Of a stretch of DNA of 12,701 nt, positions 4,483-5,074 are shown piece by piece. Both the position numbers and the translations under genes were made by a program. The DNA lies in the UHGV virus genome UHGV-0102869; one strand, given 5' to 3'. Origin of the DNA: a virus. Positions within the stretch are counted from its first letter, which is position 1; each line of letters opens with the position of its first letter. The notes under the pieces were generated by a model that made no database searches, had not been told where the DNA came from, and was given only the letters and a program-made list of their open reading frames with translations.

Positions 4483-4572
4483 ATGGATCTATGTGTAGAT
4501 AAGTATGAGGAGAGGCATGTGCCGTTAAGACAAAAGCCTCCAGTTCCTCCAAAACCACCCAAGGAAAACTGA
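4483..4572 (+). CDS. Candidate 29-codon upstream ORF encoding a proline-rich peptide (MDLCVDKYEERHVPLRQKPPVPPKPPKEN)
   Basis: AGGA 5 nt upstream of the ATG; TGA stop 8 nt before the ATG of the membrane-protein gene, which itself has only a weak ribosome-binding site. Too short to call with confidence. Confidence 0.3.
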   Translation: MDLCVDKYEERHVPLRQKPPVPPKPPKEN

Positions 4573-4579
4573 GACTAAT

Positions 4580-5074
4580 ATGACCAGAGACGATTATAAA
4601 TTTTATGTTCACTACTCTTATGTATTGGAGAAGATGAATTACACGTTGTTAACTCGCATTGATAAATTAATAACGTTGATGTTAATCGTTCTCGGTTTTT
4701 CAGTTTTCGCCCCGTACAGTAATTTATTTATTTTCGGTTTGTTTGTTGCCGTACTTTCGGTTCTTCAGTTGGTCTATCAGTTCGGCCAGGAGGCTGGAAT
4801 GTCTAAAGAGCAAGCGAGGCATTACAAAAGACTGCTGATTGAGTCTGATACCCTTCCTGAAGATCAGTTGCAAGCTAGATATTTAAAAATCCAAGATACT
4901 GATAGTAATCCATGGAAATCACTTGAACGAGCGGCTTTCATTCGGGCCTGCATTTTTGCTGGTGTTCCAACTAAGTACGATTTAACAACCAAAGAAAAAT
5001 TTATAGCTTGGTGTGCGGGAGATCTACCTCTAGAGAATGAACTAACGGATATTAATGATGACCAACAAGTATAA
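4580..5074 (+). CDS. Low-GC accessory gene: 164-aa protein with two predicted transmembrane helices (about residues 28-50 and 52-68) and a roughly 95-aa soluble C-terminal domain; function unknown
   Basis: Long clean ORF in a visibly AT-rich stretch flanked by GC-richer DNA; hydrophobic segments LITLMLIVLGFSVFAPYSNLFIFGLFVAVLSVLQLVY; transcribed convergently to PL. Confidence 0.75.
   Translation: MTRDDYKFYVHYSYVLEKMNYTLLTRIDKLITLMLIVLGFSVFAPYSNLFIFGLFVAVLSVLQLVYQFGQEAGMSKEQARHYKRLLIESDTLPEDQLQARYLKIQDTDSNPWKSLERAAFIRACIFAGVPTKYDLTTKEKFIAWCAGDLPLENELTDINDDQQV

Follow-up and report, generated by a model that had tools for sequence, protein, structure and literature searches.

Why should a prophage carry the gene for a small membrane protein on the strand opposite its leftward early operon, and what are the short proline-rich reading frames that surround it? 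The question is raised by a cassette at positions 4483-5277 of UHGV virus genome UHGV-0102869, a stretch of 12,701 nucleotides (nt) that is called the window here and that is of the SfV/SfIV/e14/CPS-53 type of E. coli prophage. An original prediction, made from the letters of the sequence, had placed two open reading frames (ORFs) in the cassette, at 4483-4572 and 4580-5074, and both stand with the coordinates and sequences it gave. It missed two further small frames, micro-ORFs 2 and 3, and a terminator. What is genuinely new is a conserved, unannotated set of proline-rich micropeptides, together with the overlap between the stop codon of the first and the Shine-Dalgarno sequence (SD) of the gene for a protein with two transmembrane (TM) segments. 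The broader kind of element, a prophage moron in which a membrane protein has a small partner, is already known.

As for function, the cassette can be read, with more doubt than conviction, as a self-contained moron operon in which translationally coupled proline-rich peptides act in trans on the two-TM protein, the whole being an exclusion device of toxin/antitoxin-like design. Other readings are set out below where the evidence that bears on them is given. Along the plus strand, the cassette comprises a conserved upstream element, the proline-rich micro-ORF 1, the two-TM gene, micro-ORFs 2 and 3, and a terminator, as follows (aa, amino acids).

4384-4480, plus strand: non-coding element of about 100 nt, directly upstream of the cassette
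4483-4572, plus strand: micro-ORF 1, 29 aa, MDLCVDKYEERHVPLRQKPPVPPKPPKEN, with a good SD (TAAGGA) six nt upstream of its ATG
4570-4582, plus strand: junction TGAGACTAATATG, where the stop codon of micro-ORF 1 and the two-TM gene's weak SD overlap, with the ATG 7 nt after the stop
4580-5074, plus strand: two-TM gene, 164 aa, PHROG 6315 (no assigned function)
5055-5183, plus strand: micro-ORF 2, 42 aa, ..GHVGHVPPKPRPPSPK.., sharing 20 nt with the two-TM gene's 3' end
5188-5277, plus strand: micro-ORF 3, 29 aa, MNAFIYTWKEDHIPLKPRPSPPEPKPKSR, starting 4 nt past the micro-ORF 2 stop
5308-5337, plus strand: intrinsic terminator of the cassette transcript (hairpin 5308-5329; 9-bp stem, 4-nt loop, T-run)

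The micro-ORFs as genes

All three window peptides share the core H-phi-P-P/L-(K/R)-P-x-P-P. The cassette was compared across 68 IMG/VR loci and three genome loci with homologues of the 164-aa protein, plus annotated E. coli and phage loci. An upstream ORF bearing the motif ends 6-20 nt before the two-TM start in 55 of the 63 unique cassettes, and most of the others have a variant proline-rich ORF in its place. Downstream of the two-TM gene, one to three motif ORFs are found in 62 of the 63, most of them with an AAGGA or GGAG ribosome-binding site of their own. When the motif is written as the regular expression H.P[PLVT].{1,3}P.{1,2}P, it matches the coding strand of 65 unique cassettes 160 times and the opposite strand not once, with five matches in 532,832 six-frame codons of flanking DNA.

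The amino acids are kept while the DNA changes. Identical 11-aa cores are encoded by two to five different DNAs; HVPPKPRPPAP, for example, exists in four versions with many third-position differences. One pair of micro-ORFs differs by nine nt and no amino acid over 20 codons, and another by 21 nt and two amino acids over 24 codons. Pairwise Nei-Gojobori estimates, computed on these short sequences, give nonsynonymous rates (dN) of 0.02-0.17 and synonymous rates (dS) from 0.5 to saturation; pairwise dN of the two-TM gene is 0.07-0.32. Besides the prolines, the invariant histidine and stretches near the N-terminus, MSRPIEPF for example, are under selection. What is selected in the micro-ORFs is thus the amino-acid sequence, and selection at that level implies that they are translated. 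By this comparative evidence, they are genuine genes. That the upstream frame is real and conserved is borne out by purifying selection and by its retention in all ten distant phage-borne loci described below.

One could still suppose that the proline-rich ORFs are untranslated and that what is conserved is a C/A-rich signal in the nucleic acid itself, such as a site for Rho utilisation or for protein binding. Proline-coding stretches are indeed C-rich and G-poor, and annotation pipelines leave these ORFs uncalled. The ORFs nevertheless retain frame, start codon and SD, synonymous turnover is heavy while the amino-acid sequence stays constant, and the motif expression has no opposite-strand or other-frame matches within the cassettes. 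This explanation is strongly disfavoured and hardly credible.

The motif is also confined to its module. When 2.9 million viral contigs were scanned with a degenerate DNA version of HVPP(K/R)P(R)PP, 36 sites came up, 28 of them on contigs that also have the two-TM gene. The remaining eight have no two-TM homologue near them and are frames that arise by chance in GC-rich DNA; the motif is therefore specific to the cassette module. None of seven such peptides turned up among some 15 billion predicted proteins, and the sequence of micro-ORF 1 is absent from that set. In the annotations inspected the micro-ORFs are uncalled, except that the upstream ORF is listed as a "hypothetical protein" in Elizabethkingia and Providencia phage records. 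The peptides have no Pfam domain and no DNA-binding antitoxin domain.

Variation among the downstream copies shows how the set changes. In the commoner E. coli version of the cassette (ACN002, AVS0542; 89% nt identity over the region), the downstream ORFs MMTNKHNPVHGHVPPKPKPPKPKK and MSRPIEPFHIPPRPRPPGPGPK have diverged while keeping frame and motif. The micro-ORF 3 peptide of the window is identical in a second lineage, L028-L041, where the two-TM gene beside it is just 67% identical. The window cassette is a recombinant of the two: its nt 1-611 (4483-5093) match the ACN002 lineage and its nt 615-798 (5097-5280) match the L028-L041 lineage. The joint, at 5093-5097, falls within the motif of micro-ORF 2, where GHV is duplicated (GHVGHVPP). 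Recombination inside repeated proline-rich coding DNA may be a route by which cassettes are shuffled. Elsewhere two motifs lie in one ORF as a tandem fusion (L007, L042, L051/L055 and L065), and in Pectobacterium P0013 a peptide is fused in frame to the C-terminus of the two-TM protein (..AGDLPTEKESKMAKPPVDGHIPPRPRPPAPPKAQN). The P0013 fusion is a hint, of the Rosetta-stone kind, that peptide and protein may interact physically.

Three other identities for the micro-ORFs were considered and set aside. They are not spanins or Rz1-like lipoproteins, as the peptides have neither signal peptide nor lipobox and the PHROG spanin match has an E-value of 0.42. A likeness to the SH3 ligands of EspFU-type type III secretion effectors was judged coincidental. 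A programmed frameshift that would fuse micro-ORF 2 to the two-TM protein does not suit an overlap that ranges from -95 to +15 nt, nor the fact that most copies have their own SD.

Coupling at the stop codon

The original prediction contrasted a weak ribosome-binding site for the two-TM gene with a good one for the ORF before it, and this is what the window has (GAGA and TAAGGA, respectively), with the ATG 7 nt past the TGA. The overlap of stop codon and SD recurs in most Enterobacterales variants (..TGAGGTnnnnnATG; ..GACTGAGGTnnnnnATG), as well as in Fels-2 (TAGGAATCCGGCATG), Providencia PSTNGR2lys (TAAGGAGTTGCCATG) and Elizabethkingia EKP1 (TGAGGAAGCTATG). The upstream ORF is taken to be translationally coupled to the two-TM gene because its stop codon lies within that gene's SD.

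Of course, coupling of this sort can also be read purely in cis, and leader-peptide control by a stalling tract was what the original prediction suggested. Worked out, the model is that a ribosome pausing on the proline tract, in response to the supply of elongation factor P (EF-P) or prolyl-tRNA, would block the two-TM start or hand over to it and so set or gate production of the membrane protein, and the released peptide would have no function. Several features of the junction favour such a leader. The weakness of the two-TM SD in the window suits it, as does the conservation of both the stop/SD overlap and the 6-20-nt spacer. Among 39 distinct upstream peptides the tract ends one to nine, mostly two to six, codons before the stop, so that by standard footprint geometry the SD would lie within the leading edge of the paused ribosome. 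Consecutive prolines (PP) are present in 36 of the 39 and PPP in 15; the window's upstream ORF has three PP pairs, and runs of up to seven prolines occur in the upstream ORFs of distant relatives. A precedent exists as well, as proline-rich leaders and EF-P maintain the coupling of transcription and translation (PMC5021804).

Leader-peptide control fits only part of what is found. The upstream ORF is conserved, its stop lies in the two-TM SD, and its proline tract keeps its distance; it is not, however, a lone leader, and no RNA switch accompanies it. An alternative RNA structure at the junction was sought by folding 4455-4620, and the fold was no better than those of shuffled sequences (z = 0.43). 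In three of the 39 peptides, including those of a common E. coli lineage and of Fels-2, no two prolines are adjacent, which means that EF-P-type polyproline stalling is not obligatory. The cis model also leaves unexplained the one to three copies past the two-TM gene, which carry an SD and lead into no gene, the tandem fusions and the C-terminal fusion, and it does not call for selection on non-proline residues such as the invariant histidine and MSRPIEPF. It is a possible explanation, if a somewhat doubtful one, and it and action in trans are not mutually exclusive.

Another way to connect the peptides with the ribosome would make them intracellular, phage-encoded counterparts of apidaecin or oncocin. 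Each peptide, as a nascent or newly freed chain, would settle in the exit tunnel and arrest its own ribosome at the stop codon, thereby gating a pore-forming effector encoded 7 nt downstream, and at a higher dose it would act in trans. The result would be a ribosome-state sensor that drives abortive infection, or a shutdown of translation during infection. The dimensions are suitable. At termination, a peptide of 21-31 aa would fit whole in the exit tunnel, its core is two to six residues from the C-terminus, and a ribosome at the upstream stop would cover the SD together with the ATG that lies 7 nt on. In addition, ..PRPRPPQPGK appears to resemble apidaecin ..PQPRPPHPRL. Termination arrest, though, does not go with motifs that lie far from the stop in tandem fusions, nor with the 17-residue tail that follows the core in micro-ORF 2 of the window, and the upstream peptides are often acidic, unlike the cationic antimicrobial peptides. 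We consider it quite improbable.

Distribution and relatives

The pairing of peptide and membrane protein reaches well beyond E. coli. Ten distant phage-borne members were examined: L077-L079, L081, L083, L084, Fels-2, Yersinia vB_YenM_42.18, Providencia PSTNGR2lys and Elizabethkingia EKP1, the last four with proteins 31-37% identical to that of the window. A proline-rich ORF ends just before the two-TM start in all ten (for example MSDSDKKPDRGHEQQIPIRKDHAPIYRTPPPPPPPRSD; MSDSDNFHVLPRPAPAPKPEPGQDKK in Fels-2; ...NSTPTPPPPTNTSNRGKPKQ in EKP1), and none of the ten has downstream micro-ORF copies. On the loci compared, the pairing of upstream ORF and two-TM gene is conserved from E. coli phages to a phage of Bacteroidota. 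Since the pair recurs in 63 unique cassettes and ten distant loci, its arrangement is far beyond chance.

Of 5,426 complete E. coli genomes, 103 have the cassette or a close relation of it, with the exact window version in four; one close variant of the two-TM protein is found on at least 1,000 contigs. Among 1.8 billion representative proteins, a profile search gathers a family of 222 clusters at 50% identity, nearly all of 130-190 aa. Judged by these counts and by the annotations, the module is common and undescribed.

Two of the distant loci call for a remark on annotation. In Fels-2 (NC_010463.1 30343-30804), the two-TM homologue and its upstream ORF are unannotated, and an opposite-strand gene, STM2733.1.Fels2, is called over them. 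The same is seen in Yersinia vB_YenM_42.18, where the opposite-strand vBYenM4218_008 is called instead. Both calls are probable strand misannotations in the early regions of P2/186-like phages.

The genomic surroundings bear on what the module is for. It could be real and yet not be an exclusion device, serving instead, for example, in lysis timing, membrane stress, host fitness or virulence conversion. This would agree with the lack of any PADLOC match and with EKP1, in which the module adjoins the lysis cassette. It would also agree with a 158-aa two-TM paralogue (27% identity) that is fixed in the Salmonella enterica chromosome beside sopE2 and a metallophosphatase gene (L124-L127), in a cluster of more than 1,500 sequences; this paralogue may be a domesticated remnant with changed regulation. 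Against such roles stand the two-TM hairpin with its weak resemblance to SLATT, described below, and the way the module is placed. It opposes the neighbouring lytic operons in the lambdoid prophages, in the P2/186-like phages (Fels-2, Yersinia) and in EKP1, an S24-type repressor gene lies near it in L077 and L084, and prophage exclusion genes have been described with the same placement, against lytic operons and in slots of cargo exchange close to the immunity region (PMC3594210). A role other than exclusion is unlikely.

The two-TM protein

Two transmembrane helices and a soluble C-terminal domain had been predicted for the 164-aa protein, and hydropathy and an AlphaFold2 model agree on both. 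By hydropathy, the hydrophobic segments span residues 30-47 and 50-67 approximately and are joined by a two-residue loop. Lysine or arginine residues lie on both cytoplasmic flanks, which argues for a topology with both termini inside. In the model (33 homologues, pLDDT 76.7), residues 3-42 and 49-88 form a long helical hairpin, after which come four short helices. The protein is thus predicted to be a helical hairpin with a helical cytoplasmic domain of about 97 aa.

Its family is harder to name. The original prediction did not recognise it as RexB, SieB, Imm or Cor, and no library tested gives a match to any of these. A PDB sequence search with the protein and with two family alignments returned no significant family. 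The named relatives are all "hypothetical", except that two UniRef names say SLATT. Among the relatives, the best SLATT match is to SLATT_4 (E-value 0.04-0.06, compared to a cut-off of 55 bits), and sub-threshold matches are found in two plus two of 119 members for SLATT and in two of 33 for DUF4231. In a Foldseek search of a viral structure library, four of the top five matches are giant-virus SLATT proteins, all weak at E-values of 0.2-0.5. The protein is SLATT-like in its modelled shape and is not filed as a SLATT member.

Genomic setting and cargo slot

The cassette lies among the regulatory signals of the prophage's immunity region, where boxA, operator and promoter assignments are all based on consensus matches.

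yfdT, yfdR, yfdQ and yfdP, minus strand: early-left genes
5485-6159, minus strand: S24-type repressor gene (cI), with cro-like and ymfL-like genes to its right
5445-5440 (-35, TTGACA) and 5423-5418 (-10, CATAAT), minus strand: PL promoter, 11/12 sigma-70 match
5402-5420 and 5420-5439: operator-like repeats overlapping PL, with related copies between cI and cro (6192-6211 and 6225-6244)
5308-5296, minus strand: boxA CGCTCTTTAACAA (core GCTCTTTAACAA, 5307-5296), near-perfect, with 0.03 matches expected by chance
5262-5308, minus strand: nutL-like site, boxA followed by a 7-bp hairpin AAATCCC/GGGATTT, abutting and overlapping the end of micro-ORF 3

Read along the minus strand, the elements follow one another as cI, a terminator, PL with OL, the nutL-like site, the cassette (antisense), the conserved element of about 100 nt, an STnc100-like RNA element and yfdP. 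The boxA lies about 110 nt downstream of PL, on PL's strand; it was identified by comparison with the rrn/lambdoid boxA consensus. The terminator hairpin at 5308-5329, read on the minus strand, stands directly upstream of boxA in the PL transcript, and one sequence may therefore serve both as the cassette's terminator and as part of PL's nutL region.

With promoter, operator-like repeats and boxA located, the cassette does lie between PL/nutL and the early-left operon and antisense to PL, as had been proposed. The claim that this is the position of rexAB does not hold. The lambda rexAB genes, which are co-oriented and co-transcribed with cI, occupy the interval from cI to PL. In the window, PL and its operators (5402-5445) separate cI from the cassette, which lies beyond boxA on the opposite strand. 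The picture of an AT-rich island is true of one side: at 39.4% GC the cassette departs from its left flank (51.5%) and from the whole window (48.7%), but not in the same way from the cI gene (44.4%).

The place itself accepts different genes. SfIV and PhiR29_1 share flanks with the window (about 4200-4478 and 5279-5500 in window coordinates) and have unrelated genes in between, with the homology on the left stopping at the ribosome-binding site of the cargo gene. Judged from these common flanks, the slot is a site of cargo exchange. Extra cargo is also seen after the cassette and before a different repressor gene in two E. coli genomes. In AH04 (L003, 7137-8027) the cargo codes for a BRCT-domain protein of 296 aa that weakly matches PDC-S48 in PADLOC (E-value 2e-7), and in AVS0542 (L005, 4208-5284) for a ParA-family protein with a weak match to PDC-M28B. 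As the slot's other cargo yields only these weak matches, the case for a defence hotspot leans mainly on literature precedent.

The upstream element at 4384-4480 has near-invariant blocks across 18 aligned loci, with unrelated sequence to its left, and it also precedes the different cargo genes of SfIV and PhiR29_1. It contains a direct repeat, TCCCCAACAAC, at 4424-4434 and 4459-4469, each copy followed by AAGGATT after a gap of 0-3 nt; the second copy with its AAGGATT provides the SD of micro-ORF 1. A third, repeat-like copy, ACAACGCTAAGGATT, lies at 4338. Consensus folding found no covariation in the element, which argues that it acts through its primary sequence. A stretch of it, ACAAGGAU, may resemble a CsrA site. 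A candidate promoter within it (TTCCCC-17-TATTAT, about 4423-4451) is weak and was found by eye only. The element may be a shared expression platform, promoter and 5' untranslated region, for the cargo genes. A start-stop pair, ATGTAA, is found at 4450-4455, 10 nt past the first AAGGATT, and overlaps TATTAT, the best -10-like hexamer.

To the left lies a GC-rich segment, 4150-4372. Rfam at its gathering thresholds has no match in the window; on the minus strand of this segment there is a full-length, sub-threshold match to STnc100 (RF02076; 41.2 bits compared to a gathering score of 47, E-value 4e-7). A preprint of 2026 (10.64898/2026.05.13.724894) connects STnc100 with the PasD small RNAs of Stx-type prophages. 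The same DNA is part of a 226-aa ORF in the annotation of SfIV and a frameshifted pseudogene in that of AH04, and both protein-coding annotations are probably wrong.

A proposed peptide-controlled membrane effector

How might such an operon work? In the reading favoured here, the micro-ORF products, 21-42 aa long, would be partners of the cytoplasmic part of the two-TM protein and would bind it. Translational coupling would ensure that the upstream peptide is made first and in excess, and the extra downstream copies in Enterobacterales would raise the ratio of peptide to protein further. The SLATT-like, pore-forming hairpin, toxic when free, would be kept inactive by these short and probably labile peptides, and it would be released once an infecting phage shuts off host gene expression. 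From its antisense position relative to PL, we infer that the cassette could be expressed in the lysogen and over-run, and thereby silenced, by PL transcription during lytic growth.

Several features argue for this proposal. A coupled upstream gene whose product is in excess follows the logic of an antitoxin-toxin operon. Downstream copies come with ribosome-binding sites and are followed by no gene, the ORFs with two motifs and the P0013 fusion likewise speak for peptides that act on the protein, and the orientation against neighbouring lytic operons, already described, points the same way. A SLATT-like hairpin in a prophage cargo slot is what suggests an exclusion effector restrained by labile peptides.

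Other observations weigh against it. A sigma-70 scan gave no plus-strand promoter for the cassette at threshold, and there is no clear one. Pfam, NCBIfam and PADLOC found nothing above threshold for the window protein, its 33 close relatives or 119 distant ones. The AlphaFold2 model of the natural P0013 fusion gives the tail a pLDDT of 47-61 and no confident docking. The Salmonella paralogue beside sopE2 has no recognisable proline-rich upstream ORF, which means that the protein can occur where the peptide does not. As stable partners, soluble peptides of 21-29 aa are unusual, and the fixed distance of the proline tract from the stop and SD fits positioning of the ribosome in cis at least as well. 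In addition, the 63-65 unique cassettes are related by descent, and their counts are not independent trials. A search of a literature library for the protein accessions, the peptide sequences and an architecture of this kind found no mention.

If the proposal is true, a class of 21-42-codon genes under strong purifying selection has been overlooked by annotation, and a peptide-controlled membrane effector joins the exclusion systems carried by prophages. The cassette, at about 800 bp, would be a compact natural model of how short soluble peptides regulate membrane proteins. It would also be a model for asking whether phages use proline-rich sequences to link the behaviour of the ribosome to a cell-fate decision.

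Comparison with known systems

Like lambda RexAB, SieB and HK97 gp15, the cassette is borne by a prophage, next to the immunity region, in a slot that exchanges cargo. With RexAB it also shares the combination of a membrane protein and a cytoplasmic partner, and presumed expression in the lysogen. In lambda the cytoplasmic partner is a protein, RexA; here it would be a set of proline-rich peptides of 21-42 aa. Pfam, PHROG and PADLOC reveal no homology to RexA or RexB, and the cassette lies beyond PL and nutL on the opposite strand.

The modelled two-TM hairpin, extended by cytoplasmic helices in a protein of about 150-190 aa, recalls the SLATT effectors. Unlike these, the family fails every hidden Markov model (Pfam SLATT_1-6, SLATT_fungal and DUF4231; NCBIfam) at curated thresholds. 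The two-TM gene has none of the SMODS, SLOG, RT or TIR neighbours associated with SLATT; beside it lie only proline-rich micro-ORFs and phage regulatory and early genes.

A small upstream gene next to a larger one and translationally coupled to it, here with a 6-20-nt gap and a stop codon inside the SD, is also the layout of type II toxin-antitoxin and abortive-infection operons. The peptides differ from type II antitoxins in having no DNA-binding domain, and extra downstream copies are unusual in such operons. As in hok/mok, synthesis of a membrane-active product would be tied to translation of an upstream frame, but no Sok-like antisense RNA was identified.

A likeness in size and core (about 20 aa, PRPPxP-type) to apidaecin, oncocin and Bac7 is presumed. 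Those peptides are animal-derived, secreted and strongly cationic, whereas the cassette peptides are intracellular products of phage genes and are often acidic ahead of the core.

Finally, proline-rich leaders that sense EF-P or proline (the mgtL/mgtP type; for EF-P and coupling, PMC5021804) are likewise short ORFs immediately upstream of a membrane-protein gene. They work with alternative RNA structures or terminators; none is predicted in the cassette, where the stop codon overlaps the SD instead. The cassette differs from them, too, in that its motif is repeated downstream, its non-proline residues are conserved, and some lineages do without consecutive prolines altogether.

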